From the IMG/VR virus record IMGVR_UViG_3300019487_000051, positions 1 through 43,094 of that record: 43,094 nt of DNA. The stretch is one strand, 5' to 3'. Positions 1,722-43,094 of the stretch are shown in pieces (the stretch's first letter is position 1; each line of letters opens with the position of its first letter). Made by a program: the position numbers and the translations under genes. Source of the DNA: a virus. Below the pieces are notes generated by a model. That model saw only the letters and a list, made by a program, of their open reading frames with translations, searched no databases and was not told where the DNA came from.

Positions 1722-2396
1722 ATGAAAGTACTCGTGATTCTTAGCGGAGGGCTTGATAGTACAGTCGCACTTGCGAGAGCGATCGATCTCCATGCACAAG
1801 TCAACGCATTGACTTTCTACTACGGGAGTAAACACAACGGGCGGGAGAACGAAGCCGCGATGGAGATTTGTAAACACTACCGCATCCCGCAACATGTGAT
1901 GAATTTGATGTTCATGAAACAGTTCAACTCAGCTCTGACTACTCGAGGGGAGGAAATCCCCCAAGGACATTACAGTGCGGAGAACATGTCCCGCACAGTT
2001 GTTCCGGGAAGGAATGCTATCCTGCTTAGTGTCGCTGCCGGATGGGCGGTAAACATCGGAGCACAGGAAATTTGGTACGGAGCACACGTCGGAGACCATC
2101 CGATTTACCCCGATTGCCGCTACGAATTCATCCACGCAATGCACAAAGCTCTGCTCCTCGGATATGGAGTAGACCTCCACGCTCCGTTTGTTGAAATGAC
2201 CAAAACACAAATCGTGAGAGAGGGGCGCGAGTTACACGTTCCGATACATCTAACTTACAGTTGCTACAACGGAGATGAGGAACACTGTGGCCGGTGCGGG
2301 ACTTGTGTCGAACGTGCAGAAGCATTCGCGTTAGCTGACGTTCCCGACCCAACAGTCTACACCGACCCAGAGTTCTGGAAGGGAGTGTGCCATTGA
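1722..2396 (+). CDS. queC: 7-cyano-7-deazaguanine (preQ0) synthase QueC
   Basis: PP-loop VLSGGLDSTVAL near the N-terminus. C-terminal Zn-site cysteines SCYNGDEEHCGRCGTCVERAEAF. RBS AAGGAGG upstream. Confidence 0.9.
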   Translation: MKVLVILSGGLDSTVALARAIDLHAQVNALTFYYGSKHNGRENEAAMEICKHYRIPQHVMNLMFMKQFNSALTTRGEEIPQGHYSAENMSRTVVPGRNAILLSVAAGWAVNIGAQEIWYGAHVGDHPIYPDCRYEFIHAMHKALLLGYGVDLHAPFVEMTKTQIVREGRELHVPIHLTYSCYNGDEEHCGRCGTCVERAEAFALADVPDPTVYTDPEFWKGVCH

Positions 2397-2965
2397 ACGA
2401 GAGAGATCTAAACCCAGATAAAGTTTCCACCGCTACTCGAGAGCTGCTACTCGCGTTAGGAGTAGACCTCACCGATCGGAATTTCAAAGACACTCCCGCA
2501 CGCGTCGCTCGGTTTATGATGGAGCTTTTTCGATCCAAACGATCGGACATGACAGCGTTCACGGAGGAGTACGATGGCATGATTATTCTCCGCGGACATG
2601 AGATGTGGACGTTGTGCCCTCACCACCTATTACCCGTTCGGATGATGGTCAGTATAGCCTACATCCCGTCACAAAGAGTTCTCGGTCTCAGCAAACTCGT
2701 TCGTTTAGTCGAACGCTTCAACACCAAACCATTGATGCAGGAGGAGATGACTCACAGCATCGCGGATTGGTTTGCCGACGGGGAGATAGAAGCCGCAGGC
2801 AGCGCGTGTTACATCACCGGCGAGCATCTCTGCATGCGGATGAGGGGGGTTAAAACCGGAGCAGATGTTGTTACCGCCGCATTTCGCGGGCAGTTACAGA
2901 AACAGAACGATCTCAAGAAAATGTTCATGGATATCGTCTGTGGACGAGAAGGGAGGAAGTTATGA
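2387..2965 (+). CDS. folE: GTP cyclohydrolase I (FolE/QueD-pathway entry enzyme)
   Basis: Signature WTLCPHHLLPV. MQEEMTH corresponds to the QERLT region. About 190 aa. GTG start overlaps the queC stop. Confidence 0.85.
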   Translation: MPLNERDLNPDKVSTATRELLLALGVDLTDRNFKDTPARVARFMMELFRSKRSDMTAFTEEYDGMIILRGHEMWTLCPHHLLPVRMMVSIAYIPSQRVLGLSKLVRLVERFNTKPLMQEEMTHSIADWFADGEIEAAGSACYITGEHLCMRMRGVKTGADVVTAAFRGQLQKQNDLKKMFMDIVCGREGRKL

Positions 2966-3017
2966 AATCTGTGGCCGTTGCTAGATTGCCAAGAACGCCC
3001 TGAGCGTTCCGATAGGA

Positions 3018-4694
3018 ATGTATTATCACTGTCCCGATTGCGGAGCAGATATGTTACCAAAACCCGAAGCATGTAACGGATGTCCGATGAGAAACATCGG
3101 GTTGGGGTTCGTACCTGGTCGCGGGACGCTGTCGCCCGATTTTATCGGTGTCGCACAAGCTCCCGGCAGCGACGAGGTGCATTCAGACGATCCTCAACCC
3201 CTCATCGGACCGAGCGGTAGGGTATTCTCTCGAGCGTTGTATGAGAACAATGTCACTCGGCAGAAAGTCTACCTGACAAATGTTTTGAAATGTCAACCAC
3301 CGAAGGACAAGCTACCGAGCAAAGACATCTTGCTGCCGGCTGTTGCGCATTGCACGAACGCGTATCTACGAAAAGAACTCGCAGTTGTCAAAGGTCCGGT
3401 GCTTGCCATCGGTGGGCTGTCACTGTACCACATGACAGGCAAAGAGCTACCGATCCTGACCTATCGTGGCTACCCGTATTGGAGCGAACGCTACTCTCGA
3501 TGGACAATCGGCACCATCCACCCCGCGATGGTGTTCAAGACTGCTACCGGCTCGGCAGATAAGAGCCCACCCGCGGCCATCATCCCAGCTCTGCAAAGCG
3601 ACATCCGGAAGATAAACCGTTTCACCAAACCAGCAGACATCGAAGAGAACATCGACCCGAGCGAAAGCGACATCCGGTTGGTTGTCGAGCAAGCTCTTGA
3701 CCAACGACTCGTCGCTGTCGACATCGAAACCCCCGGATTTGAAAAAGACGAAGACGAGGTATTCACCAGTGCTAAAGATATCCATCTCATCGGAGTGGCC
3801 ACAAGAGACAACCATGCAATCGTATGCTCCCCGTCGCAGTTTGAACTTCTCCGGCCCATCTTCGACCCACATAATCACGTGGTACAGATCGGGCAGAATT
3901 ATGTATCTGACCTACTCAGCCTATCGGCACGATACGGTTTCTCCGTTTCGGATACGCACGTTGAAGATATCATGCTTCAGTTTCACGCTCTATATAGCGA
4001 CTTACCGAAGCGGTTAGCTGTCATCGCGAGTTTTTTCACCACCCTACCGTATTGGAAACTAAGCAAAAAAGACTGGAAGGCAGGAGTTAGCCCCGAACGG
4101 TTCATGCGTTACAACGCGAAGGACACCATTGCGAACTGGATGTGTTTCCATGCCATGCAACCGTTGATCGAACAAAACGGGCTGACAGACACCTATCAAG
4201 CCATGCTCGGTTTGGTACCTTTCGCTGTGCAAATGTACGAGCTTGGCATCAACACCGATCAGACAACAGCTATGCGCATCCAGCTTGAACACGCGCAAGT
4301 CAACGATGCAATAGTCAAAGCGCTGACAACAGCCCTGCCGGGGTTCAACATTGAAAGCCCGATACAAGTTATGGAGCTGCTGTACGATCGGATGGGATTG
4401 CCGGAGCAGACGCACAAAGTCAAAGGCGTGGTCAAGCGGACAAGTAACGATGAGGCTTTGACCGCTCTGCAGCGGATGTTTCCACAAAACAAAACCCTCG
4501 GTTTGATTCAAACCTATCGAGGGAACAAAAAGATCATCGAGTATATCGACCATCCCGCACGTGGACGCGTTCATAGCTCGTTGAAGATCACTGGTACAGC
4601 TAGTGGGAGGTTAGAAAACCGAGAGCCGAATTTGATGCAACAACCGGATATCGTTCGCGTCGCCTACATCGCGGATGAGGAGTGTGACAGATGA
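3018..4694 (+). CDS. Family A DNA polymerase, N-terminal part: family-4 UDG-like domain, 3'-5' exonuclease and thumb. It ends just before motif A.
   Basis: N-terminal Cys cluster CPDCG...CNGCP, then GVAQAPGSDEV and GTIHPAMV (UDG family 4 motifs). VAVDIETPG (ExoI). TGTASGRLENREPNLMQQP followed by VRVAYIADEE, the conserved Pol I stretch that directly precedes motif A. Confidence 0.85.
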   Translation: MYYHCPDCGADMLPKPEACNGCPMRNIGLGFVPGRGTLSPDFIGVAQAPGSDEVHSDDPQPLIGPSGRVFSRALYENNVTRQKVYLTNVLKCQPPKDKLPSKDILLPAVAHCTNAYLRKELAVVKGPVLAIGGLSLYHMTGKELPILTYRGYPYWSERYSRWTIGTIHPAMVFKTATGSADKSPPAAIIPALQSDIRKINRFTKPADIEENIDPSESDIRLVVEQALDQRLVAVDIETPGFEKDEDEVFTSAKDIHLIGVATRDNHAIVCSPSQFELLRPIFDPHNHVVQIGQNYVSDLLSLSARYGFSVSDTHVEDIMLQFHALYSDLPKRLAVIASFFTTLPYWKLSKKDWKAGVSPERFMRYNAKDTIANWMCFHAMQPLIEQNGLTDTYQAMLGLVPFAVQMYELGINTDQTTAMRIQLEHAQVNDAIVKALTTALPGFNIESPIQVMELLYDRMGLPEQTHKVKGVVKRTSNDEALTALQRMFPQNKTLGLIQTYRGNKKIIEYIDHPARGRVHSSLKITGTASGRLENREPNLMQQPDIVRVAYIADEECDR

Positions 4695-5032
4695 ACGCGT
4701 TAGACGCTTTGCAGCGTATGACCAGCAACGACATTATCGTCGGGACGATAATCGAACTAGACGGTAACAAATACACCGTTATCCGTCTGTCCAAAGCGGT
4801 GGCTATAACGAAGGAGAAAGAACCCGGCTGGTCTGGAGCACAGAACAACCTATCGCAATTTCTTGTCAGACAAGTCACTCCGGAAGAGTCTGTGTTTTAC
4901 TTTTCCACCGAGGAGTGGGCAGTGCTACGTAAGAAGGAGAACGGAACGGTCTTCAGCTTGAACCTACTATGGAAAGTCCAAACCATCGACGAGTTTGTTA
5001 AGGAGAAAGAAAATGTACAACGGACAGAGTAA
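4691..5032 (+). CDS. Hypothetical protein inside the polymerase split
   Basis: 113-aa ORF. Its ATG overlaps the stop of polymerase part 1 (ATGA). No motif recognised. Confidence 0.4.
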   Translation: MNALDALQRMTSNDIIVGTIIELDGNKYTVIRLSKAVAITKEKEPGWSGAQNNLSQFLVRQVTPEESVFYFSTEEWAVLRKKENGTVFSLNLLWKVQTIDEFVKEKENVQRTE

Positions 5033-5201
5033 CAAACCAACTCGTTACGCAGTGCACTGTCCAGTTCATGGGCAGGTCTACCTGACAGAAGACGAACGCT
5101 TTCGCCAGCTTAACAGCTCAGACGATTGCTGGTCCTGTCCTGTGACGACCGATCCTGACGATTTCGGTCTTTGCGGGCGCGAAAAAGGGAGAGTGAGATA
5201 A
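5013..5201 (+). CDS. Small zinc-ribbon-like protein inside the polymerase split
   Basis: ATG 5013 is preceded by AAGGAG at 7-nt spacing. HCPVHG...CWSCP metal-binding pattern. The ORF-track start at 4995 is less likely. Confidence 0.4.
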   Translation: MYNGQSNKPTRYAVHCPVHGQVYLTEDERFRQLNSSDDCWSCPVTTDPDDFGLCGREKGRVR

Positions 5202-5331
5202 TGTACTGGATACCCAGGAAAGTGTGCTGAGTGCAAGACTATCTTCTATGAAGGCGATGCTCGCAAAACTTACAGTCAAATGCCACGGCGGCGCGATTGT
5301 TCTCGGGATTACATTGTGGGTGAAACATTAA

Positions 5332-6153
5332 ATGCCACTGCTATACGCGGATTTCAACCAAATCGAGTTATGGATAGTCGCACTAGAAGCGAACGATGAA
5401 CCCTTCCTTGCCATCCACGCGAGAGACGAATACGTTCACGGAGCAGCTTACGAAGATGTGTTCAAACCAGAACTGTTTTTCGAACCCGGCAAACCGAGAC
5501 GTAAAGAATTCCGTCTGCCAACGGTCACGCATGAAAAACTCAATCGAGCGAAGGCGATACCTCACGGGTTCAACTACAACCGTAAAGGCGCGTCTGTCGC
5601 AAAAGAACACAACTGGACTGAGAGGGAAGGTCGAACCTACGAAGACAAATACTTCACCGTTCATTGGGCAATTCGTGACTGGCATAAGAAAATCGACAAC
5701 GAGGTGTCAAGAGATGGACTGCTACGAAATAAATTCGGTCGGATCAGAAGATATCCGATTAAAGATAACAGTGTCTACAGCTACAAACCTCAGTCCGGAG
5801 CAGCAGACATACTTATACGTGCTATCCCGCGTATATTTGCGCGGCTTACTCTACCATCTCGAATCCTCCTTCCAGTTCACGACTCACTGCTCGTTCAGTC
5901 GCCGTGGGTTAAAATGGAACGAGACGCTCACGTTCTGGTTGAGGAGATGGAGAGACCGATTCCTCAACACAACAACTTCGTCTTCGGGACGGAGCTAAAA
6001 ATCGGTATGAACTGGAAAGACGCTGACGAGGGCAACCCTCTAGGACTAACCACCGTTACATTAGCCAATCTCCCGGAGGCAGTGCGTGAACTCGAAAAAC
6101 GATATCGTAGCAGTCAAACGGCTTATTCGATTGCTACGCGGGGAGAAGTTTGA
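5332..6153 (+). CDS. Family A DNA polymerase, C-terminal part (palm and fingers, motifs A, B, C)
   Basis: Begins MPLLYADFNQIELW (motif A, DYSQIELR-type). RAKAIPHGFNY (motif B). LLPVHDSLL (motif C). Confidence 0.85.
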   Translation: MPLLYADFNQIELWIVALEANDEPFLAIHARDEYVHGAAYEDVFKPELFFEPGKPRRKEFRLPTVTHEKLNRAKAIPHGFNYNRKGASVAKEHNWTEREGRTYEDKYFTVHWAIRDWHKKIDNEVSRDGLLRNKFGRIRRYPIKDNSVYSYKPQSGAADILIRAIPRIFARLTLPSRILLPVHDSLLVQSPWVKMERDAHVLVEEMERPIPQHNNFVFGTELKIGMNWKDADEGNPLGLTTVTLANLPEAVRELEKRYRSSQTAYSIATRGEV

Positions 6154-7516
6154 GACAACTAGTCCGGTGTTTGAAGCGACTCTTCGCTTTCTCCGACAGT
6201 TCCCGATCGACCTAGACGAAGACGATCGTACGCTGTTCAAACAAACAATCTGCACAAGCTTCGGTATAACCGAGGCTCAGTTGAAAACCTACACAGGTGG
6301 AGCGGAAGCTGACATGAACCTCGACAAGGCAGAACGGATACTCACCAGCGAGGATGCTTTCCGGCAGTGTTACCCTCCAAACGGTTTCTGTGCTCGATAC
6401 GACGAACTAACCTCCCACGTCGAGGCTCCGATCACCTTCCATATAATGTGTTTGTTAGCTATTCTCGGGAGTGCTCTTCGTCGTAGAACGTGGATGGAAC
6501 GTGGCTTCTACGATCTCTACCCCAACCTCTCCGTTGTTTTGATAGCCCCCGCTGGAGCGGCGAAGAAAGGTGCTGCGGTCTCTATCGCGGAAGGGTTGCT
6601 ACCTCCGGATCTAGTCAACGTTCTTGCGGAGAAGTTAACCCCGGAAGCTATCATCGAAGCGCTTGCGGAGGAGGAAGCTAACAGCGGTAAAGCCGCCGGG
6701 TTGCTCTGGGCTCCAGAACTCAGCGTGTTGCTCGGTAAACAAAAATACAACGATGGGATGATACCGTTGCTGAACGAACTGCTCGAATGTAAGAAGAAAT
6801 GGAAATCCCGAACAATCTCCCGAGGTGAAACCGAGCTCGGTGACATCTACGTCTCTCTCATCGGAGCGAGCACACCTGACCTCTTCGGGAGCAGTATGTC
6901 CAGCGCCGCACTCGACGGCGGGTTTATGTCTCGGCTGTTCCTCGTTGTCGAAGAGGGTAGTGATCGATCGTTCAGCGAGCCGAAAGTCGACAAGCTCGAA
7001 CTTCGTCGGATGCAGGGAGACATCTTCCGGATATTGCAGAAGCTCGAAGGGGAGATTAAACTATCCAAAGCCGCATACGATCTCTACGACAAATGGTACA
7101 ATACCCCTGACACTCTATCTGAGTTCCACGTCAAACTCGCTCCGTATTTGGAACGGAAGCCGGATCATTGCCTACGTATAGCCATCCTCTATCACTTCCT
7201 TGAACACACCGATCTGGTTATCTGTGACAGCTGCATAGCCTACGCAATCAAAACGATCGAGTTTCTGGAGAAACGCCTCCCGATCGCCTTTAACCGGTTG
7301 TTTGAATCTCGCGATGGAGAAGACGTCTCGTTGATATTGAAAGTCCTCCAACGTAATGGAGGGATGCTCGATCATGACAAGCTCATGGCGAAAACCAAAC
7401 ACCGTATGAGTTTCCAAAACCTGAAAGGACATCTAAGCACCCTTCGAGAGAGCGGTGAGATTAAGGAAGTTCACACCACTCTTGAACACTACTACATCCT
7501 CCGAAGGAAGGATTAA
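6086..7516 (+). CDS. Putative replication ATPase/helicase-like protein with C-terminal winged-helix (DUF3987-like)
   Basis: VVLIAPAGAAKKGAAV (atypical P-loop) and RLFLVVEEGSD (Walker B-like). C-terminal LKGHLSTLRESGEIKEV helix-turn-wing pattern. Lies after the polymerase. GTG start is uncertain and overlaps the polymerase by 68 nt. Confidence 0.35.
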   Translation: MNSKNDIVAVKRLIRLLRGEKFETTSPVFEATLRFLRQFPIDLDEDDRTLFKQTICTSFGITEAQLKTYTGGAEADMNLDKAERILTSEDAFRQCYPPNGFCARYDELTSHVEAPITFHIMCLLAILGSALRRRTWMERGFYDLYPNLSVVLIAPAGAAKKGAAVSIAEGLLPPDLVNVLAEKLTPEAIIEALAEEEANSGKAAGLLWAPELSVLLGKQKYNDGMIPLLNELLECKKKWKSRTISRGETELGDIYVSLIGASTPDLFGSSMSSAALDGGFMSRLFLVVEEGSDRSFSEPKVDKLELRRMQGDIFRILQKLEGEIKLSKAAYDLYDKWYNTPDTLSEFHVKLAPYLERKPDHCLRIAILYHFLEHTDLVICDSCIAYAIKTIEFLEKRLPIAFNRLFESRDGEDVSLILKVLQRNGGMLDHDKLMAKTKHRMSFQNLKGHLSTLRESGEIKEVHTTLEHYYILRRKD

Positions 7517-7518
7517 CT

Positions 7519-7896
7519 ATGTCTGCAAACGAAACCTGGGTTGATTTAGCAAAGACACTCGGTTACGAAACCGAACCGGATATGTGGAAAGACCTATACA
7601 ACATCAAAGACTGGTCGATAGGTAAGATCGCTATCCGGTTGGGGTATAGTAACACCGTTATTCGTCGGCGAATGACTTTGTGCGGGATCCAAATGCGAGG
7701 CAAAGGCGGACCGAACAACAAAGGCAAGGGGAGGAAGATTCTAGACCGCTTCGATCTAGACTTCGTGATGAACGCTCCAGTGAAAACTGTACTTGATAAA
7801 GCGAAAGTGACAGAAAGTACTCTGTGGAGGTATAGACGTGAAGCGAGGAAACAACAGCAACAGCAACCAGTTGCAGATCTGCCTAATCAGCCCTGA
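7519..7896 (+). CDS. Helix-turn-helix DNA-binding protein
   Basis: WSIGKIAIRLGYSNTVIRRRM is an HTH-like segment. Basic region, Gln-rich tail. Confidence 0.45.
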   Translation: MSANETWVDLAKTLGYETEPDMWKDLYNIKDWSIGKIAIRLGYSNTVIRRRMTLCGIQMRGKGGPNNKGKGRKILDRFDLDFVMNAPVKTVLDKAKVTESTLWRYRREARKQQQQQPVADLPNQP

Positions 7897-8632
7897 GAAG
7901 GGTCTCGATACATTCAGTTCATTGACTAGACGGCAATTCGCTCTCGCTCATATCGCGAGGAAAAGTCCGGGGTATTGTGACTATTTCAAACGAATGCGTG
8001 AGAGAGGGGATTATATCATCCTCGACAACGGAGCTTGGGAGCTTGGGGTTAGTATTAGCAACGAAGAGCTAAGCGACCTAGCCGAGCAATGTTATGCGAA
8101 CTGTATCATCCTCCCAGACAGTCCTCATCATAGTTGGAAGACCACAGCAAGTATGACTCTACAATACCTGCTAACATTCGCCAAACCTGGTTATGATTAT
8201 ATGTACGTTCCCAGCGCAGGGGATCGTGATCTCGAAGACTACATCGAAGCGTATAAGTGGGCGAGCACGATCGACCAAATCACCCATATCGGGATTTCTC
8301 GTATGACCGGGAATAAGATCTGGCCGGAGGAGAGTAAAGCTTGGTCGAGAGTTAGACTGGTGCTCGAGATCAAACGTCTTGGTTGTTGGAATAATACAAA
8401 ACGTCACCACGCTCTCGGATGGTTAGGTAGTCTAGACGAATTCCCTTACCTTGACTACCTCGGGTTCGAGAGCCTCGACTTCGGTGGAGCGGTCTGGCGC
8501 GGATACTGCGGTTACAGTATCTTCGACAAAGACTGGCCGGACACGGACGTCGATTTCTTTGCCGAACTCGTCCCAGCGAATCGATCGATCGTTGATCGGA
8601 ACGTCCGGGAAGCGTTGAGTGTACTAGACTAA
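7838..8632 (+). CDS. dpdA: Small TIM-barrel/TGT-fold protein, candidate DpdA-type DNA guanine transglycosylase
   Basis: The order of strand-end motifs parallels tRNA-guanine transglycosylases: YIILDNGAWE (cf. TDSGGFQ), CIILPDSP, YMYVPSAG, HIGISRM, RHHALGWLGS, ESLDFGGAVWRG (cf. DMFDCVxPTRxARxG). Embedded among que genes. The true start is uncertain; an alternative start may lie after 7896. Confidence 0.5.
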   Translation: MKRGNNSNSNQLQICLISPEKGLDTFSSLTRRQFALAHIARKSPGYCDYFKRMRERGDYIILDNGAWELGVSISNEELSDLAEQCYANCIILPDSPHHSWKTTASMTLQYLLTFAKPGYDYMYVPSAGDRDLEDYIEAYKWASTIDQITHIGISRMTGNKIWPEESKAWSRVRLVLEIKRLGCWNNTKRHHALGWLGSLDEFPYLDYLGFESLDFGGAVWRGYCGYSIFDKDWPDTDVDFFAELVPANRSIVDRNVREALSVLD

Positions 8633-8634
8633 CT

Positions 8635-8901
8635 ATGCAACGAAACAGTAAAAAAACTCACTGTCCGAGAGGACATGCATACGACGAGAGGAATACCGGA
8701 ATAGGTCAAACAGCTACTGGGATATACCGGCGCTGTCGAACTTGCGACAGGAGGAGAAAGGAGAAATGGAAACAATGGAAACAATGGAAACAGGATACCC
8801 AATTGCGGAGGAGTTTGATAGCATCCAAGGCGAGGGACATTGGACGGGAACAGCTATGCGGTTCATCCGATTCGCCGGCTGCAACGTTGGAAGGATGCTG
8901 A
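8635..8901 (+). CDS. Small zinc-finger protein (CxxGH...CxxC)
   Basis: HCPRGHAYDERN...YRRCRTCDRRRKEK. The C-terminal part overlaps the queE start and carries the KWKQWKQWKQ repeat. Confidence 0.45.
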   Translation: MQRNSKKTHCPRGHAYDERNTGIGQTATGIYRRCRTCDRRRKEKWKQWKQWKQDTQLRRSLIASKARDIGREQLCGSSDSPAATLEGC

Positions 8902-9464
8902 GAGAGTCTTCAATCGGAGTACAATCAGTCAACGGAGAGCCTTACCACGCGATGTGCACGTTGTGGGACGGTCGAACGTTCGGCTGTGATACAAACTACC
9001 AAAAGCACAGCGCGAAATCTCCCTTTCAACTACTCAGCGCTGCCTGGCAAAGCCACATTTGCCTGACCGGAGGGGAGCCTTTACTTCACGATCTCAGCAT
9101 GCTGATCAGGAAAGCAACGAGGCAAGGGAAGATGATCCATCTCGAAACAAGCGGGACGCGTTATCCGGAATGGCTGCGTGAGGACCCACTCCGCCACCAA
9201 ATCTGGATCAGTGTCTCCCCAAAAGAAGACTGTCTCCCGGAGATGATTTCTCTCGCGGATGAGATTAAGATCCTAGTCGACGAACGGTTTGATGAGAGAC
9301 AGCTACTCGTTAGCTTCCTCAATAACAACAACGTCTACCTTCAACCAGTTAACTACGAGATGACGGTGAATAGGGAAAATCTCGAACGGTGCTTACAGCT
9401 CCAAAAACGCTTCCCGGAATTCCGCATTAGCTGTCAGTTACACAAATTCATGAACGTGAGGTGA
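8766..9464 (+). CDS. queE: 7-carboxy-7-deazaguanine synthase QueE (radical SAM), non-canonical cluster spacing
   Basis: EEFDSIQGEGHWTGTAMRFIRFAGCNV, FGCDTNY and LTGGEPLLH. ATG 8766 with AGGAGG about 10 nt upstream is preferred over TTG 8742. Confidence 0.8.
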   Translation: METMETMETGYPIAEEFDSIQGEGHWTGTAMRFIRFAGCNVGRMLRESSIGVQSVNGEPYHAMCTLWDGRTFGCDTNYQKHSAKSPFQLLSAAWQSHICLTGGEPLLHDLSMLIRKATRQGKMIHLETSGTRYPEWLREDPLRHQIWISVSPKEDCLPEMISLADEIKILVDERFDERQLLVSFLNNNNVYLQPVNYEMTVNRENLERCLQLQKRFPEFRISCQLHKFMNVR

Positions 9465-9970
9465 AAATGAAAACGTCGCAATCGGACTGTCAGTGTACTT
9501 GGGATGATACACACCAATACATCGTTTACAAAGATCCTATCTGCCTGGTTCATAACCCTGTCATCTCAGTGAAAAGCATGGATGCTACTCCCGACCCAGG
9601 TACGGAGACTTTCTCTAGCGGAGCGACGCGAAGCAAACACCCCGAGTTGCAAAAACACCATCTCGTTGCAGAACACGGTCAGCGCCGCCTTGCCTGTCGT
9701 TTCGGCCTTGGAGATACTAACTACCCTCCATACAACTGGAGAAAGGGCATACCGTTCGGTAATCTACTCGATCACCTCGAAGAGCATCTTCTCCGCTTGC
9801 GAACGAAACTTCGAGAGAACAAAAGCTACCGTCCAGATCTTGACGACGACGAAGCTGCTATCGCCTGGGCGGTGTTTGCGATTATGCAGTTTCAGTGTGA
9901 AGGACGAAGTGACGAACTAAACGATGTTTATTGGAACAAAGACAAGGAGGAACGTACCGATGCATCCTGA
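9461..9970 (+). CDS. DUF5664-type (dATP/dGTP diphosphohydrolase N-domain, MazG-like all-alpha) nucleotide pyrophosphohydrolase with N-terminal CxC...CxxH motif
   Basis: FSSGATRSK...RRLACRFGLGDTNYPPYNWRKGIPFGNLLDHLEEHLLRL...DDDEAAIAWAVFAIMQF matches the FxxGAxR / KYxxxNWxKG / RHL pattern of this phage family. GTG 9461 or ATG 9467 start, coupled to the queE stop. Confidence 0.5.
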   Translation: MKMKTSQSDCQCTWDDTHQYIVYKDPICLVHNPVISVKSMDATPDPGTETFSSGATRSKHPELQKHHLVAEHGQRRLACRFGLGDTNYPPYNWRKGIPFGNLLDHLEEHLLRLRTKLRENKSYRPDLDDDEAAIAWAVFAIMQFQCEGRSDELNDVYWNKDKEERTDAS

Positions 9971-10265
9971 TATCGATCTACTTAGGTCAATGGATCAACA
10001 ATTCATCCAACCCGAGAGCACGCGTAACTACGGTAAGTGGATGGGTTTTCAACGCCACGTTAACGAAGCTGGTAAAACGCTTTTGATAGCCCTCCCGGAA
10101 CCCAGTCCGGAACGCACCACCGCTTTCCGCAAGCTTCAAGAAGCTCTCTTCTGGGGGAACCTCGCCGAACAACGTTACAATCCCGAGCAGTATCCGGTGT
10201 ATGAACCTAAAAAACTCGAACCGAACGAACCGAACGAACCGAAGCCGGAAAGGAAGGCCGAATGA
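9960..10265 (+). CDS. Hypothetical protein (EPNEPNEPK repeat near C-terminus)
   Basis: ATG 9960 with AAGGAGG 10 nt upstream is preferred to the ORF-track start at 9924. Stop overlaps the next ATG (ATGA). Confidence 0.45.
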   Translation: MHPDIDLLRSMDQQFIQPESTRNYGKWMGFQRHVNEAGKTLLIALPEPSPERTTAFRKLQEALFWGNLAEQRYNPEQYPVYEPKKLEPNEPNEPKPERKAE

Positions 10266-10540
10266 ATGGCAAAATGTACCTGCAAACTGGAAATAATCGT
10301 GGTCGAACTCGGCCGGGGTTGTCCTATACACAACGCTTCGCACGTAGTGAACTTGACCAACCGGAAGAGAAAAAGCGCACCCAAGCCGATCGGGAGAAAG
10401 CTACGTTCACTTGCTGTCACGGACGCAAGCTCGACTGGAAACAAGCTCGGGTGATCGTTGAAAGATCCGCACCGAATTACTCCGATATCCCGGGAGATGT
10501 TTGTTTGTATGACATCCTGCTTCGAAAGGAGATTAAATGA
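10262..10540 (+). CDS. Hypothetical protein (one of two fully overlapping candidates)
   Basis: ATGA coupling to both the upstream and downstream genes. Confidence 0.35.
   Translation: MNGKMYLQTGNNRGRTRPGLSYTQRFARSELDQPEEKKRTQADREKATFTCCHGRKLDWKQARVIVERSAPNYSDIPGDVCLYDILLRKEIK
10266..10454 (+). CDS. Alternative-frame small CxC...CPxH zinc-binding protein candidate
   Basis: MAKCTCKLEIIVVELGRGCPIHN repeats the CxC-x12-15-CxxH motif seen at the N-terminus of ORF 9461. Same RBS region as 10262. Confidence 0.35.
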   Translation: MAKCTCKLEIIVVELGRGCPIHNASHVVNLTNRKRKSAPKPIGRKLRSLAVTDASSTGNKLG

Positions 10541-10806
10541 ACCTCACACCGAGAAGAATAGGCAAATTCGGTATCTCAGCTGAGTTGCTCGTTACCGTTG
10601 GCTGGGAAAAGCTCGGCCTGGTTTTGGGTCGAACAGGTATGCTTGTTGTTGAAGCTAACTATTGCTTCGACACCCGAGCAATCGAATACACCGCTGTCTG
10701 CCCGATGTTCGATGTAATCCCAGAAGGTGTTTCCGCTCCAACATATCGAGTGGAGATTGAACATCAAGACCACACTCTAAGCATCTACTTCCGGAGGGTA
10801 TCGTGA
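10537..10806 (+). CDS. Hypothetical protein
   Basis: 89-aa ORF coupled on both sides (ATGA at 10537; GTG of queD overlaps its stop). Confidence 0.45.
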   Translation: MNLTPRRIGKFGISAELLVTVGWEKLGLVLGRTGMLVVEANYCFDTRAIEYTAVCPMFDVIPEGVSAPTYRVEIEHQDHTLSIYFRRVS

Positions 10807-11264
10807 AAATCAGTAAGCAGTTCAGCTTCGAGGCAAGTCACATGCTCCCTCGTCATCCTGGTAAGTGCTCTCGCCTCCACGGACATAGCTGGACGGGGCA
10901 TGTAACTATTATCGGAGATGTCAACCCCTCCACCGGGTTTGTAATGGACTACTACCACCTCGGAGAGATCATCCGTAAACGGATATTCGATCCTCTCGAC
11001 CACAAACACCTCGGAGTGCATTACTCTACCGTAGGTGCAAAGGAAGAGTTCTTAGTTCCAGACACTTGGAGAGCACCGATCGATTTCTACCCAAGCAGCG
11101 AAAGACTTCTTCGCTGGATCGTTCAGATGCTCAAAGTCGACCTGCCAAACCTCTACGAGGTTGTTTTACACGAGACTTGCACCAGTGCAGCTATTTGGAC
11201 GTTAAATGACGTCACCGAACCGGATTATGGTTCAGGCATACACATGGACGCTTTCGATCGATAG
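10803..11264 (+). CDS. queD: 6-carboxy-5,6,7,8-tetrahydropterin synthase QueD
   Basis: FSFEASHMLPRHPGKCSRLHGHSW plus VMDYYHL (PTPS/QueD signature). GTG start. Confidence 0.85.
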   Translation: MKISKQFSFEASHMLPRHPGKCSRLHGHSWTGHVTIIGDVNPSTGFVMDYYHLGEIIRKRIFDPLDHKHLGVHYSTVGAKEEFLVPDTWRAPIDFYPSSERLLRWIVQMLKVDLPNLYEVVLHETCTSAAIWTLNDVTEPDYGSGIHMDAFDR

Positions 11265-11275
11265 GAGAAACACAA

Positions 11276-11605
11276 ATGAAACGTTTGCGACCGGCTACAA
11301 CAAAACTGCTTATCGCCCGACAGGATTTCAACTACAAAGGGTTGATTGTCGTTCCCGATGCATCGAAAACCAAACCAACCGTTGGTAATATCATCGCCGT
11401 CGGTCCGGATGTGACGATGTACAAGGAAGGTCAGCGTGTACTATTCACCCGCTTCAGTGGAATTGTCTTCACGGTGATTGATCGTTCTCACTCTCGAGCA
11501 GATCCCAACACAGGAGAGGTGGAGTTCCTAATAATCGACCAGACAGAAGTGTATGCGGAGATTAAAGAGGTGAGTCAGGGCGCCGCAGAAGCGTTCAATG
11601 ATTAA
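11276..11605 (+). CDS. groES: GroES-like co-chaperonin (Cpn10 family)
   Basis: LRPATTKLLIARQ...GLIVVPDASKTKPTVGNIIAVGPDV...GQRVLFTRFSG...EFLIIDQTEVYAEI follows the Cpn10 pattern, including the mobile-loop region. Confidence 0.65.
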   Translation: MKRLRPATTKLLIARQDFNYKGLIVVPDASKTKPTVGNIIAVGPDVTMYKEGQRVLFTRFSGIVFTVIDRSHSRADPNTGEVEFLIIDQTEVYAEIKEVSQGAAEAFND

Positions 11606-12625: not shown

Positions 12626-15600
12626 TTAAAACTTCTCTGGTTTCACCGGTCTAAACCCGAGCAGAGATAGTAACGGGTTATCGCTATCCAACGCTCGGTA
12701 TATGCTCCTCATCTGTTGATACCCCGGAACGAATTGAAACGGGAGTTGGACAAGTCTATGCCTCGCCATACTAGCTTCCACTCCTTCCCCACTCACCCTC
12801 ATCAAATCCTGCATAGTGCTGGTCCAAACACTACCGTTGTACTCTGCAGGGGAGGTCCAAATCCACCTCGAAACATCCGCTCCCATACTTTGGAAAAACA
12901 ACTGCATGGCTTCGTTAACCGCAAACCACCGACCTATCCACGCTACGCGGTGAGTGATAGACCCTCTCGTTGCTCCTCGGATCATGTATTCTATGAACTG
13001 CTCCGGCCACTGACCGTACATACCAAGCACCCGCCCCATCTGACTCCGGATCAGCTGCGGAGCGTTGCCTTTTCTAATCGGCCACTGCGTCGCTTCAACA
13101 ATATACCGGCTAAGCAATCCTGCCGCCTCTTCAATCGGTACGGTTGAGTCTAACGCCTTCAACGTCGCGTTCTTTGCCATACCTTCCTGCAGTATCTCCG
13201 CTCCGCTGTCTTGGAGGAAGTTGTCCAAGTTCTTATCCTTCCTCAACTGCGCAATCGCGAGCTTCGCTCGGTCAAAACTCCCGTTGAATGTTACCACCCT
13301 CCCGAAGTTGTTACCAACGTGGGTGAAATACAAACTCCTCTGCAACATTCCTGGTATATCAGCCAGGTCACCACCTTCCGGCACCGGCGCAACATTATCC
13401 GGGATGGTAGCGGCATACTTCTCCGCCAGCCTCCATCCATCTCCAGTCAAAGCCTTCCCGAAGCCATGTCCGAACCATCTCTCTCCGAGATGCGGATAAG
13501 CTGTTAGGAAGCTTTGCATACCGTCTCTCACCGCCAACGCGGGGCGGAAGCCTAACGAGCTGCTGTATTGTAGCAAGACGAACTTCCTCACGCTGTCTTG
13601 CGACAACCCCATCTTGTCAAACCCCGGGATTTTCGAGAGATACTTATCCATCCAATTCGTCAACGATTGGTAGACAAAATCCGGTTCACCATACATATGC
13701 TGCATGTACTTCGCCACCGGCTCTTTCAACTCCGCTGGGAGCGATCTCCAAGTAGTCTTAGCATTGTCCCACACCGGACCGAGGAATTTCTCTCTCGCTC
13801 CAATCCGAGTGTACTGCATCAACTGCAGTACGGCATCGGTCTCCCTACTCGCTTCCGCCGCTTCATCTTTCACTCTCTCATGCTTCGCGAAGAAGTCAAC
13901 CTCTCTCGGTAGCGATTGCTGCATGAACGGATCGGCCTCGTTCGCTTTTGCTCGGTTCCCGGCTTGCCTCATAAACTCCGCTTGCTCCATCCGAGGAGCG
14001 TAATCTTCAAGGAAAGGCGCACTATCTCCGATGTTGAAAGTCTTAAACAACTGATCATACCTCTCCCGCAGCTTCGCCACGTTATCTAAATCCTCCCGTG
14101 TGAAACTGTTTTTATGTGACACCTCCGCTTTAGCATCCGTTCCCTTCGCCTGCAACCAAGCTCGGTAAGCTATCCTCTTCTCTGGAGTGGTAGTGCCTAA
14201 CATCTCATAAAGCCCTTTATACTCGTTAGACAAAAACCTCTCTAGTTGCATCTGCCCACTGTCAAACGGGAGGTAGATATTATCAAACACCGGTAGTGAA
14301 GTCTGCTGCTGCACACTGTTAAACCAATCTCGAGAGTTTCTAACATACGCAGTCACCGGAGTCAACCCAACATCTACCTTCTCCGTTTGCTTCTTCCCTG
14401 TTAAGAACTCTCTCCGAGAAAGTCCTTCACCCCTCTTCGCCATGAAGCTCGGACCGATCACCCCACTCCTCGGTGGACCCGCCGGCCCCTCCGGCAACGC
14501 GTTAGGTTGCTCCCACCCTTGTATCTTCAACTCCCGTTCCAATGCACTAGTCAGTTCGGGATAGAATACCACATCTCCCATCCCAACATCAAACACTCGC
14601 GCGATGTCTCTAAAAGTGTTGTAGACAAGAAACTCACCATCGACGTTGATCGTCATCCACCGACCGTCCGGACCTACCCGAACCAACGGAGTGTCGAGTA
14701 TCATCTCACCGTAGCGTTGCAACGACCAACTAGGATCCGTTCGGGCTTTCACTCCTGCGAGATAGCTCTGTGCCCACTTATCAAAATAACTCTGCGTGGC
14801 GCTAAAGCTAATCGGATCGATAGACGTTCCTTTCGTAACACGATTAAACGCCCAACGACCGGTTTCTCTCGCTAGTTCGAGTACATGAGAGAGGTCTTTA
14901 TCCAACCGTACAAGTTCTACAATCTCTCGTTGCCCTACTTTAGTCTCCGCCCGTTTGAAAGCCGTCCACAAACGAACAAGGATCTCTTCGTTCGCCTCAT
15001 TCGGCTTGGCGTAAAGATCTGGATACTTCTCCATCAACGAGGTAACCATACCGTTCCAAGCTTCCCTCAACGGCTCACCAGTTGGTCCGGTAGTTTCTAA
15101 CAACCGACTGAAAGTATCTACATCTCCCGGGAGGACGGCTGCGTTAGCGGCATGCACGTCTCTCTGCAACATCGGGAGTTGAGAGTGTAACAAGTGCCCG
15201 ATTTCGTGAACCATCGTCTCGGCAGGTTCGTAATCTCCTACCGCTATCTGCTCCAACGCTCCAGGGATTGTTGCATGATGCAACCCTGCAATACTAGCTG
15301 GTAACTTTGCTCCTCTCGCGTAGGTAACAACAAGTCCTCCAGGGAGACTGACTCGTTTAACACTGCCAGTTTCAAACGAAGCCATCGCTTGTTTTACCAA
15401 GTCCTCTCCCTCCGGCCCGGCTCCTTCAACCGCCATCGCTTCAAACTCCGGAATCAACGCAGCGGAGTGTACTCTCATCCCGTTTTCAGTCAACTCAACC
15501 ATATGTTGTTGTTGTGGGCTGAGAAACTCCTTTGCCGTTTCTAACCTCTCTCGTCTCTCACTCTCCATTGAAGTGCCGTAAGCTTCCAACCCTCGCATCT

Positions 15601-42295: not shown

Positions 42296-43094
42296 CTATA
42301 GTCGGATAAAGGAATTCCGGCTCTGCAAACGCAAAGACTACTTCTCCCGCGTGAAACGATGGACGAGTTCAACCCCAAGGCTCGAGCTCGACTACGGTAC
42401 GGCAATCCACACCGCCATTCCAACCTGGTTTCAGACAAAGAGCGTTGACAAAGCCTGCGCGGCTTTCGACGAGTCGTTCAACAAATACCTCGAAAACCCA
42501 TACCTGCTTCCCGAGCAACAAGATGAAGGTCTCGCTATGCAGAGACTAGGTCATTTGTCTATTCAAAGCTACTGTGAGACCTGGAAGGAAGATTTCACGT
42601 TGATCTTCCCGGAATACCAGAGCAAAGCGCCTCTGTTAGACGGGAAGCACGAGCTGGCTTTCCGCACAGATGCAGTGATAAGCGTTGGTGGAGCGTTGTG
42701 GTTGCTTGAGAGAAAAACACTGAGCAAAAGCATCAGCGTTAACACGATCATCGAGAGTTTCGCGATCGATGAGCAACCGACCGCGTACATTATCGGGTTG
42801 AGGAAGAAAACCGGCTTGCCAATCACCGGTTTCATCTTAGAGATTGTACGCAAAACAACCATCCCAGAGATCATCCGAGAAGCTATCGTACGCTCAGCGG
42901 AACAACTTTACGACACTGAACTCGGCCTTTACGAAACCATCGACGAGATGGAACAAAGAGACAAAGAACTTGAACATAAGAAAGCGGTGATGACTATCGG
43001 AGATGAAAACGAAGAGGTCGTAACCAAACGTCTCTATCCGAAAACCACCGGGACTGCCAGCTGCTACCAATTCTTCCGGCCGTGTTTGTTTCTC
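42285..43094 (+). CDS. PD-(D/E)XK Cas4/RecB-like exonuclease. It runs off the window end and continues at 124-246 after circularisation.
   Basis: ATG 42285 is preceded by AAGGAGG. Nuclease motif RTDAV...LWLLERKT (D...ExK). N-terminal Cys (RLCKRK) plus C-terminal CYQFFRPCLFLQHC, typical of Fe-S Cas4-like phage exonucleases. The frame is continuous with ORF 16-246. Confidence 0.6.
   Translation, partial: MISNYSRIKEFRLCKRKDYFSRVKRWTSSTPRLELDYGTAIHTAIPTWFQTKSVDKACAAFDESFNKYLENPYLLPEQQDEGLAMQRLGHLSIQSYCETWKEDFTLIFPEYQSKAPLLDGKHELAFRTDAVISVGGALWLLERKTLSKSISVNTIIESFAIDEQPTAYIIGLRKKTGLPITGFILEIVRKTTIPEIIREAIVRSAEQLYDTELGLYETIDEMEQRDKELEHKKAVMTIGDENEEVVTKRLYPKTTGTASCYQFFRPCLFL
42972..43094. repeat. 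Second copy of the 123-bp terminal overlap
   Basis: Identical to 1-123. Confidence 0.95.

Follow-up and report, generated by a model that had tools for sequence, protein, structure and literature searches.

Does a phage that makes preQ0 put this base into its own DNA, and in what form? The question is raised by the 43,094-nt stretch analysed here (the window), the whole genome of an uncultured, podovirus-like phage of ~43 kb. It is complete, with 42,971 bp and a further 123 nt of terminal overlap, so a gene absent from it is absent from the phage itself. We found four preQ0 biosynthesis genes and one gene for a DpdA3-type transglycosylase, all five on the + strand; Pfam scans assign the remaining ORFs to replication, lysis and structural functions. 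On the basis of this gene set we favour, with moderate confidence, the reading that a 7-deazaguanine, most probably 2'-deoxy-preQ0, takes the place of guanine in the phage's own DNA.

The first-pass annotation had named all four preQ0 genes, and both lines of evidence agree with it: each ORF gave significant profile matches, and every motif it quoted occurs in the translations. QueC, the preQ0 (7-cyano-7-deazaguanine) synthase (1722..2396, +, 224 aa), matches Pfam PF06508 at 5.7e-64 and carries SGGLDS and a zinc cluster, C-x8-C-x2-C-x2-C. The folE gene (GTP cyclohydrolase I; 2387..2965, +, 192 aa) shares its first 10 nt with the end of queC, and its product, with the CPHH motif, matches PF01227 (GTP_cyclohydroI) at 2.5e-45 and scores 161.7 bits on NF006826 (cutoff 162). 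The ORF of queE, which encodes the radical SAM enzyme 7-carboxy-7-deazaguanine synthase, opens at 8742; translation probably starts at the ATG at 8766, which follows the Shine-Dalgarno sequence AGGAGAAAGGAGAA and is also chosen by the gene caller of the sequence collection, giving a 232-aa protein (8766..9464, +). QueE contains SIQGEG, CDTNY and TGGEPLL and matches PHROG 2076 'QueE-like' at 3.6e-26, TIGR04322 at 2.3e-22 and TIGR04508 at 4.3e-21, the latter two under their equivalog cutoffs. Its cluster motif is unusual, C39-x24-C64-x9-C74-DTNY, and this cysteine pattern is kept together with GGEPL in five related loci. We counted the non-canonical spacing and the sub-cutoff equivalog scores of QueE against the main reading. 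QueD, the 6-carboxytetrahydropterin synthase (10803..11264, +, 153 aa), carries CSRLHGHSW and matches PF01242 (PTPS) at 3e-28 and TIGR03367 at 3.5e-22 (78.6 bits, cutoff 89.25).

Which base these enzymes would deliver depends on QueC and on what follows it. Among all window ORFs of at least 40 aa, phmmer found no match to QueF, DpdL, DpdN, a kinase, a PRTase, a dUTPase-like protein or MazG, and the complete genome holds neither a Gat-QueC nor an ArcS-like gene. The earlier statement that QueF and a QueC-fused or ArcS-like amidotransferase are missing thus holds over the whole genome in Pfam scans and phmmer searches. We call the base preQ0 because QueC is canonical and nothing encoded acts downstream of preQ0, which supports the 2'-deoxy-preQ0 predicted at first pass. 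It is quite unlikely, in our estimate, that the same system instead yields 7-amido-7-deazaguanine (dADG), either because QueC releases its amide intermediate or because the DpdA3-like enzyme prefers the amide. Such an outcome is known from Campylobacter phages, which combine DpdA3 and QueC* (a proposed ADG synthase) with an incomplete preQ0 pathway and have 100% dADG (PMC10516641). An 'H-x-GD...YPDCRYEFI' segment of the window QueC is also common to QueC* and mycobacteriophage QueC, unlike the 'CETD' of the E. coli type. However, the window QueC reaches 200.8 bits on the preQ0-synthase equivalog NCBIfam TIGR00364 and passes its cutoff of 150.3, whereas Campylobacter QueC*, taken as a control, stays below it at 140.3 bits; identity is 36% to QueC* versus about 50% to the nearest phage homologs, those of cluster-B mycobacteriophages.

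The proposed inserting enzyme is encoded at 7838..8632 (+, 264 aa), with a GTG start and GGAGG 7 nt upstream. Sequence searches in Pfam, NCBIfam, PADLOC and PDB gave no match for this ORF, to TGT or otherwise. Its AF2 model, of very high confidence (pLDDT 95.6, pTM 0.92), has a TGT fold: in a Foldseek search against PDB, all of the top 50 hits were tRNA-guanine transglycosylases (E~1e-6, probability 1.0). A fold search of BFVD returned CGPG_00065 of Cellulophaga phage phiST (M4SLA5), the first member of the DpdA3 type, in near-complete superposition (TM 0.82/0.83, rmsd 2.9 A), far better than phage DpdAs annotated as queuine tRNA-ribosyltransferase (TM 0.4-0.5). By tblastn the ORF leads to the same phiST protein and to the 'DpdA' of Flavobacterium phage vB_FspM_immuto, with 28% identity to immuto DpdA3 at a BLASTP E of 2e-16. 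In profile comparison by hhalign, the match to TGT stayed at a probability of 13-26% (E 4e-4 to 2e-3). The TGT/DpdA-fold relationship on which the first-pass annotation had staked its reading is found by model and fold searches. That sequence profiles alone fall short of TGT was counted against the main reading.

The sequence family of this protein (2,776 representatives) keeps D63 and D214 invariant and D94 and H191/G194 nearly invariant. These map by hhalign to D89, D264, D143 and LMG245 of E. coli TGT (D63/D214/D94/H191-G194, respectively), and D63, D214 and D94 to D102, D280 and D156 of the Z. mobilis enzyme; by analogy with TGT, we propose D63, D94 and D214 as catalytic residues. With bacterial TGT and DpdA the protein thus shares the (beta/alpha)8 barrel and the aligned catalytic aspartates, including the nucleophile. 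Unlike them, it lacks both the CxCxxC...H zinc site and the C-terminal subdomain, falls about 110 residues short of their length and is missed by PF01702; no DpdB-like ATPase partner, as in the bacterial Dpd system, was identified in the window. The window transglycosylase is a distant member of the DpdA3 family (Hutinet et al. 2023, PMC10516641), a minimal 264-aa barrel that forms its own clade with the DpdA3 proteins of related contigs. Of the DpdA-type enzyme expected here, the TGT fold and catalytic aspartates therefore stand; identity with classical DpdA1, DpdA2 or bacterial DpdA was set aside for a barrel that lacks the zinc subdomain and is invisible to Pfam. The zinc/C-terminal subdomain is the part by which TGT holds nucleic acid, and we counted its loss, together with the acidic pI of 5.4, against a DNA-acting enzyme.

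TGT itself, whose fold this is, modifies tRNA. We considered whether the genes might serve RNA, supplying preQ0 or queuosine for host tRNA, with the TGT-like protein as a tRNA-modifying enzyme or in some unrelated function. DpdA3 activity on DNA has no published biochemical proof, and the absence of modification when DpdA3 genes were expressed in E. coli (PMC10516641) was counted against the main reading. Nevertheless, the missing zinc/C-terminal part is the one with which TGT binds tRNA, and the nearest relatives by both structure and sequence are DpdA3 proteins from phages whose DNA is fully substituted. Moreover, QueF is absent, while tRNA insertion in bacteria needs preQ1; we found no tRNA genes in the phage genome, and every relative has its DpdA3 gene inside the replication module. 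We regard an RNA role as highly improbable and infer that DNA is the substrate and preQ0 the inserted base.

How far substitution might go is suggested by the known DpdA3 phages. Guanine is replaced to 100% in phiST, immuto and Campylobacter phage CP220, by dDG, fdPreQ1 and dADG, respectively (PMC10516641). Since guanine is fully replaced in these three analysed DpdA3 phages, substitution in our phage may by analogy be very high or even complete. The window resembles these systems in its ~260-aa transglycosylase with 27-28% identity and a TGT fold invisible to the Pfam TGT profile, in FolE, QueD and QueE encoded near a family-A polymerase and, as in immuto, in an NTP pyrophosphatase and GroES in the neighbourhood. 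It differs in that its enzyme belongs to a separate clade, its pyrophosphatase is a PF18909-type protein and no MazG, no P-loop kinase is adjacent, and its genes lie dispersed in the replication module. Whereas phiST has DpdL and immuto has QueF/DpdN, the window combines DpdA3 with a canonical QueC and no later enzyme, hence preQ0 as the predicted base. Phages with DpdA and FolE/QueD/QueE/QueC carry dPreQ0, and the DpdA1 phages among them (Escherichia phage CAjan/Seuratvirus, Pseudomonas phage iggy, cluster-B mycobacteriophages) share the gene set and the predicted base with our phage. Unlike the window, they have a larger DpdA1 (329 aa and pI 7.9 in the mycobacteriophage), a compact operon and partial substitution: 0.1-30% for DpdA1 and about 16-32% for published dPreQ0 levels, with no complete dPreQ0 substitution among them. 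The phage adds a case to the known DpdA3-type system and is no new kind of system.

The scattering of the que and dpdA genes among replication genes, described at first pass, is real and reflects lineage-specific shuffling inside the replication module. The dpdA3-like gene directly follows the polymerase, a primase/helicase-like DUF3987 gene and a gene for a basic tandem-HTH protein (7519..7896, +, 125 aa, pI 9.9). The PolA-DUF3987-HTH-DpdA3 order is kept in seven related contigs, where the que genes are more compact. The five-gene set recurs in related contigs; QueC is present in the P0003 contig and in the three loci whose sequence extends far enough upstream to show it. PolA-DUF3987-HTH is the replication backbone of the lineage. 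The HTH gene shares its last 59 nt with the start of the dpdA3-like gene, in 7 related loci a homolog immediately precedes DpdA3, and the HTH protein's profile weakly matches TyrR/Csa3-type HTH domains. A relative with neither que nor DpdA3 genes, MW202554.1, still has an HTH homolog and a MazG pyrophosphatase. Since this relative keeps an HTH gene and a pyrophosphatase of another type, neither gene is probably a dedicated accessory, and the HTH protein is probably replication-module backbone and not part of the pathway. The suggestion that interleaved genes are accessory components therefore goes mostly unsupported; the PF18909 enzyme stays a possible, unproven helper.

This enzyme, a PF18909 (DUF5664)-type dNTP pyrophosphohydrolase (9461..9970, +, 169 aa), matches PF18909 (dGTP_diPhyd_N) at 1.7e-6 (28.3 bits, cutoff 27), and the same family is the precomputed annotation of its protein clusters. 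Homologs were found neither in the phage collection nor in PDB nor in 80 related loci, the gene is missing from seven related loci, and the AF2 model is unusable (pLDDT 41.8). A PF18909/DUF5664 family member hydrolyses dATP, dGTP and dUTP to dNMP (PMC12884076). This opens a pre-replicative route, which we judge unlikely: the PF18909 enzyme would convert dGTP to dGMP, depleting dGTP and providing substrate; the DpdA3-like barrel would swap guanine for preQ0 on dGMP as a deoxyribose-5-phosphate transferase; and kinases would rebuild dPreQ0TP, whose incorporation by the phage polymerase would give complete substitution.

Such a route would fit the nucleotide-pool enzymes that surround DpdA3-like genes in lineages independent of each other. 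Of 80 viral loci, 68 have a gene of the DCD/dUTPase fold immediately downstream, and in 15 a dNMP kinase gene separates the two; phiST, immuto and a contig of a Eubacteriales MAG have MazG-type pyrophosphatases next to DpdA3; P-loop kinase-like genes flank it in phiST, immuto and Vibrio phage D479; and Rhizobium phage RHph_I1_18 has a DpdA3-DUF3310 fusion followed by a dUTPase. However, the 80-locus counts are not independent, because many of these contigs come from related marine myophages. Neither a kinase nor a PRTase is encoded in the window, no pyrophosphatase or kinase occurs within 10 kb in seven close relatives of its DpdA3 clade, and the MazG of the DpdA3-less relative marks pyrophosphatases as common backbone genes. 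A direct precedent exists in Z-genome phages, in which DmtZ, a 2'-deoxyribose-5-phosphate transferase that exchanges bases, acts together with a dNTPase of the Dut-like (DutZ) or DUF5664 kind (PMC12884076). As there, one base would be replaced and a PF18909/DUF5664 enzyme lies near a base-exchanging enzyme; yet DmtZ has an NDT fold and was shown biochemically to act on dAMP, whereas the window enzyme has a TGT fold. For the Wayne DUF5664 enzyme, kcat is ten times higher on dATP than on dGTP (PMC12884076), which we counted against the nucleotide-level route. We take this likeness as a lead for the nucleotide-level alternative, with no claim of membership. Uniformly acidic DpdA3 proteins without a nucleic-acid-binding subdomain would suit nucleotide substrates, and a route of this kind might also account for the lack of modification in the E. 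coli tests, but post-replicative insertion is the published view (PMC10516641).

Our default is exchange on phage DNA, which would take place during or after replication. FolE would convert GTP to dihydroneopterin triphosphate, QueD would form 6-carboxytetrahydropterin, and QueE 7-carboxy-7-deazaguanine; QueC would then use ATP and ammonia to make preQ0 through the 7-amido intermediate. The bare DpdA3-type barrel would swap guanine for preQ0, with D214 as the putative nucleophile forming a covalent sugar intermediate and D63 and D94 placed as in TGT. If so, the phage DNA would resist restriction enzymes with G in their sites and escape host defences, and would be exposed to host 7-deazaguanine glycosylases. 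Neutral with regard to full protection is the mild rarity of G/C-containing palindromes in the genome, with an O/E of about 0.9, and of 0.79 for GATC.

The 264-residue ORF at 7838-8632 (+), which the first-pass annotation had read as a small TGT-fold protein in the place of a DpdA-type DNA transglycosylase, could not be identified by sequence alone. Searches against Pfam, NCBIfam, PADLOC and PDB sequences (phmmer) gave no match, and a 102-sequence family profile compared with PDB and Pfam left only faint DUF6610 and TGT traces. Since the sequence and profile searches all failed, the fold call needed a real test, and only structure prediction together with Foldseek resolved the identity. The AlphaFold2 model from the family alignment is a (beta/alpha)8 barrel (pLDDT 95.6, pTM 0.92), whose first 50 Foldseek matches in the PDB are all tRNA-guanine transglycosylases (E ~1e-6, probability 1.0), bearing out the TGT fold. 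Among predicted viral structures (BFVD), the best match is a 422-aa protein (TMq 0.84) of the same length as the DpdA3-DUF3310 fusion of Rhizobium phage RHph_I1_18, rank 2 is the 259-aa phiST protein M4SLA5 (TM 0.82/0.83, rmsd 2.9 Å), and classical phage DpdA/TGT proteins rank far lower. Pairwise comparisons lead to the same proteins: tblastn reaches phiST at 8e-5, exactly on CGPG_00065, and Flavobacterium phage immuto at 3e-9, on a gene annotated 'DNA guanine transglycosylase DpdA', while BLASTP against immuto DpdA3 yields 28% identity (E 2e-16) and phmmer gives 1.9e-10 and 1.4e-13 for homology to phiST CGPG_00065 and immuto DpdA3. CGPG_00065 is the founding DpdA3 member, from the study that assigned the distant TGT-like fold by HHpred against PF01702 (PMC10516641).

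Profile comparison, suggested earlier as a check on this ORF, succeeded in part: empty in the four databases, it became weakly significant by hhalign against a 5-sequence TGT profile (E 7e-4, probability 26%). The local alignment pairs D214 with the D264 nucleophile of E. coli TGT (Zm D280), D94 with D143 (Zm D156) and the HALG motif with TGT LMGVG; D63 pairs with E. coli D89 (Zm D102) in a permissive setting only. Throughout the 102-sequence alignment D63, D214, Y46, R171 and N255 are invariant, and N64, E68, P93, D94 (at least 90%), G152, H191 and G194 nearly so. The conserved aspartates match the TGT nucleophile and the other catalytic aspartates, and we assign them a putative catalytic role. 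In contrast to canonical TGT, bacterial DpdA and DpdA1, which combine a PF01702 match with a zinc subdomain (CxCxxC...H), the window protein has neither; among the family members, a PF01702 match occurs in 1 of 102, at 0.0054. Because the TGT zinc ligands C302/C304/C307/H333 have no counterpart and the chain ends 50 residues past D214, we regard the protein as a DpdA3-type minimal TGT barrel. An 88-aa Cys/His-rich ORF at 8635-8901 (HCPRGH...RCRTC), which begins immediately downstream of the DpdA3 stop codon and runs into the start of queE in a different frame, was considered as a substitute for the zinc subdomain and rejected: its slot is filled in six relatives by an unrelated Cys-less family that has no homolog in the window, and it is absent from the collection's gene calls.

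Homology, predicted fold and the co-encoded 7-deazaguanine genes together argue for placing the ORF in the DpdA3 subfamily; this membership, like the gene identities, the fold and the conserved aspartates, comes directly from computation. An exhaustive HMMER search (E<=1e-3) expanded the family to 2,776 representatives of about 250-280 aa. In a neighbor-joining tree the window protein belongs to a separate clade, and the branches to phiST and immuto are long. When GTDB genomes were scanned twice for cellular homologs, only two MAG contigs came up, both viral-looking. DNA exchange activity has been demonstrated for no DpdA3, and expression tests in E. coli gave negative results (PMC10516641).

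The four preQ0 biosynthesis enzymes first recognized by their motifs were all recovered by profile, namely QueC (1722-2396, +; 5.7e-64), FolE (2387-2965, +; 2.5e-45), QueD (10803-11264, +; 3e-28) and QueE (8766-9464, +; phage QueE PHROG, 3.6e-26). The best NCBIfam matches of QueE are two QueE equivalog models, at 2.3e-22 and 4.3e-21, both below their cutoffs. Its cluster motif at residues 39-74 reads C-x24-C-x9-C-DTNY, as against the canonical CX3CX2C or CX14CX2C, and is also unlike the C-x3-C-x8-C of the phiST and immuto QueEs. Yet the protein has GGEPL, and since the unusual cysteine pattern, C-x(20-35)-C-x9-C-DT, is conserved in QueE of five diverged related contigs, it is probably functional, judging from sequence. 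A perfect 9-nt tandem repeat of 3.1 copies (AATGGAAAC) at 8765-8792 is read as MET-MET-MET in QueE, at its N-terminus, and as KQW-KQW-KQW in the alternative frame.

No QueF, Gat-QueC, ArcS, DpdL, DpdM/N-type, kinase, PRTase or dUTPase-like gene was detectable anywhere in the genome, so that the absence of QueF and of a Gat-QueC/ArcS-like amidotransferase holds across its complete length. As no gene acts beyond FolE, QueD, QueE and QueC, preQ0 should be the free base that is produced. One rival product, dADG, has a precedent in Campylobacter phages, which carry DpdA3 and QueC* (a proposed ADG synthase) with an incomplete preQ0 pathway and contain dADG in their DNA (PMC10516641). We therefore scored QueC proteins against the NCBIfam preQ0-synthase equivalog TIGR00364 (cutoff 150.3 bits). 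The window QueC passes at 200.8 bits, as do those of mycobacteriophage PenguinLover67 (167.4 bits) and Escherichia phage Skure, a Seuratvirus (241.6 bits), whereas Campylobacter CPt10 QueC* fails at 140.3 bits. The window protein also aligns with the PP-loop SGGxDS and the Cys4 zinc site, and is about 50% identical to mycobacteriophage QueC as against 36% to QueC*. It is thus predicted to be a preQ0 synthase that forms the nitrile rather than an ADG-type enzyme; dPreQ0 is the better call for the inserted base, and dADG stays as its rival.

The genome is complete, with 42,971 bp closed by a terminal overlap of 123 nt. This exact direct repeat (1-123 = 42972-43094) reflects either overlapping ends in the assembly of a genome that is circular or circularly permuted, or else a pair of short direct terminal repeats. 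Lysis, tail, head, SU10-type portal and terminase genes occupy the - strand, and replication and early genes the + strand at about 0.2-11.6 kb. The latter block opens with an AAA_24 ATPase (243-1097) and a 154-aa ORF (1094-1558), followed by QueC and FolE. Next come the N-terminal part of PolA (3018-4694; UDG-like, 3'-5' exonuclease and the start of the polymerase domain), two small ORFs (4691-5201), the C-terminal part of PolA (5332-6153), a DUF3987 primase/helicase-like gene (6086-7516) and an HTH protein (7519-7896). The DpdA3-like ORF, QueE, a PF18909 pyrophosphohydrolase (9461-9970), three small ORFs (9924-10806), QueD and a GroES-like gene (11276-11605) complete it. A megablast search with the initial 12 kb matched none of 50,697 phage records, the relatives reached through terminase and DUF3987 were all at <=31% identity, and Rfam and tRNA scans of the window gave no matches.

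One DpdA3 clade unites the window with seven IMG/VR contigs (33-50 kb) and one JGI contig (P0003), and in all of them the order PolA - DUF3987 - HTH - DpdA3 is kept. After DpdA3 there is in most cases a small conserved ORF and then GroES, the latter lying after DpdA3 in five related loci. The que genes are placed differently. Wherever sequence reaches, the seven IMG/VR contigs have QueD-QueE-FolE as a compact block upstream of PolA, and QueC further upstream adjoining the AAA_24 gene; the JGI contig has QueC between the halves of a split PolA, where the window has two small ORFs; and the window, compared with these relatives, has QueE and QueD downstream of DpdA3. Because the relatives keep the core order with differently placed que genes, the scatter is lineage-specific shuffling inside the replication module, not designed interleaving.

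Among GenBank records, the nearest is podovirus MW202554.1, from Manatee Spring. Besides DUF3987 and ORFs for UDG/exonuclease and polymerase, it encodes a MazG pyrophosphatase and an HTH homolog (E 2e-6); it has neither que genes nor DpdA3, and a ParB-methyltransferase fusion instead. The HTH protein is basic, overlaps the DpdA3 start and keeps its upstream position in 7 loci, and we considered whether it serves DpdA3 specifically as a DNA-binding partner. This was not retained as specific evidence because a homolog occupies the same backbone position in MW202554.1, which lacks DpdA3. The gene content of that record speaks against the HTH protein, and against an NTP pyrophosphatase as such, being dedicated accessory components, as had been suggested for some of the interleaved genes.

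The family-A polymerase is broken just before motif A ('...IADEECDR*' / 'MPLLYADFNQIELW'). Its two parts, of 558 aa and 273 aa, jointly span the intact 806-837-aa polymerases of relatives, with only ~15-20 junction residues unaligned between them, and the 637-bp insert (4695-5331) accommodates two ORFs, one of 113 aa and a Cys-rich one of 68 aa that weakly matches DUF723. The MW202554.1 polymerase is split at another site, between the exonuclease and polymerase domains. At the N-terminus (3018-3560) a Cys cluster precedes a domain of the uracil-DNA-glycosylase superfamily (PF03167, 1.3e-11), and this UDG-polymerase fusion is also seen in relatives.

The best-supported mechanism is the standard one, in which the phage would make preQ0 from GTP and the DpdA3-type barrel would replace guanine with preQ0 by way of a covalent intermediate between Asp and the sugar, an exchange that may reach all guanines by analogy with phages phiST, immuto and CP220. 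For this scheme we infer DNA as the substrate, and likewise which base is inserted and how far substitution goes. The neighbours of DpdA3-like genes elsewhere bear on a different reading. Across 80 viral loci from IMG/VR (L010-L089), a DpdL-like gene lies just upstream in 67 and a dCTP-deaminase/dUTPase-fold gene just downstream in 68, with a dNMP kinase between DpdA3 and the latter in 15; most loci thus have a fixed module of DpdL-like, DpdA3, optional dNMP kinase and dCTP-deaminase/dUTPase-fold protein. A phosphoribosyltransferase of the PF00156 family, also found in immuto, is nearby in 21 of the 80, and FolE, QueD and QueE are usually near, with QueC in only 4. In other lineages, MazG-type pyrophosphatases adjoin DpdA3 in phiST, immuto and a Eubacteriales MAG contig, P-loop kinase-like neighbours occur in phiST, immuto and Vibrio phage D479, and in RHph_I1_18 (L120 5001-6269) a dUTPase directly follows the DpdA3-DUF3310 fusion.

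This frequent embedding among nucleotide-pool enzymes, the acidity of DpdA3 proteins (mean pI about 5.3), their lack of a nucleic-acid-binding subdomain and a precedent in Z-genome phages make it conceivable that DpdA3 swaps the base on dGMP before replication. DpdA3-type barrels would then be nucleotide-level exchangers (dGMP + 7-deazaguanine base -> 7-deaza-dGMP + guanine) and not DNA transglycosylases. In the window, the PF18909 enzyme would turn dGTP into dGMP, both feeding the exchange and starving the polymerase of dGTP, and the genome would consequently be built entirely with dPreQ0. Such a route would be the guanine counterpart of the DutZ/DUF5664 + DmtZ route of Z-genomes, in which a Dut-like or DUF5664 (PF18909) dNTPase is paired with a base-exchanging deoxyribose-5-phosphate transferase at the nucleotide level (PMC12884076). 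The window protein at 9461-9970, a candidate dATP/dGTP diphosphohydrolase (dNTP -> dNMP), scores 28.3 bits against PF18909/DUF5664 (cutoff 27); it has only two homologs in 5.8 billion proteins, and its AF2 model, from an alignment of only 2 sequences, reaches pLDDT 41.8. However, phmmer and Pfam searches did not find it in seven related loci, and the idea that it is a conserved pathway member in this clade was dropped. Moreover, the window has no kinase, and pyrophosphatases are common backbone genes. The nucleotide-level case for the window is therefore weak, and we consider this account of DpdA3 unlikely, preferring preQ0 synthesis followed by exchange in DNA.

Several observations on related loci accompany this comparison. 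The protein adjoining DpdA3 in phiST, CGPG_00066, is a P-loop AAA_18 kinase-like protein. Some family members (P0110, L120) consist of the DpdA3-like barrel and a C-terminal DUF3310; we found no function for DUF3310 in the literature, and the idea that it is a disguised PF18909 was discarded, there being no BLASTP similarity. On JAZSRA010000109.1 (L102 4721-7460), a 39-kb contig binned with the Eubacteriales MAG, QueC, a MazG-type pyrophosphatase and a DpdA3-like gene lie side by side, making it another lineage that combines DpdA3 with QueC. A close clade relative has a phosphoribosyltransferase between FolE and PolA (L026 2340-2840; PF00156, 1.8e-15), which could recycle released guanine or make the 7-deazaguanine nucleotide.

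Restriction-site avoidance was tried as an indirect measure of how far the DNA is modified and dropped, the effect being mild. G/C-containing palindromes are mildly under-represented in the whole window (mean O/E 0.92 for 4-mers and 0.89 for 6-mers; GATC 0.79, z -3.8; GGCC 0.74), and AT-only palindromes show no under-representation.

Taken as a whole, the feature is real, a divergent member of the known DpdA3-type 7-deazaguanine DNA modification systems in an uncultured podovirus lineage, and its first reading was correct. 7-deazaguanine DNA is one of the main protections that phages have from restriction enzymes and Cas9. No transglycosylase subfamily is less well understood than DpdA3, which correlates with total guanine replacement; to our knowledge, nobody has reconstituted it. 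Dedicated host glycosylases target 7-deazaguanine DNA (bioRxiv 10.1101/2025.10.29.685425). Comprising five genes and lacking both a tailoring enzyme and a kinase, the system in the window is about the smallest yet seen in the DpdA3 family. It also defines a separate clade, for which we predict fully or highly substituted dPreQ0 DNA, a product of which we found no published report. For these reasons it would be convenient for asking whether DpdA3 acts on DNA or on nucleotides, and it is a possible enzyme source for restriction-resistant DNA. Apart from this value as a minimal system, the finding is ordinary and well explained, and would hold little surprise for a specialist.

Three minor features complete the description. 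A 113-aa ORF at 9924-10265 matches the Acb2/Tad1 hairpin domain below threshold (PF24729, E 0.0014; 19.2 bits, cutoff 27), which hints at an anti-defence sponge, yet is probably due to chance. The GroES-like co-chaperonin (Cpn10, 1.4e-7) ends the + strand block, and in immuto GroES/GroEL are located after the polymerase. Finally, a single 1,794-aa ORF at 12626-18010 (- strand) takes up an eighth of the genome and holds the window's only Walker-A-like motif; its counterpart in MW202554.1 carries the annotation 'large tegument protein'.
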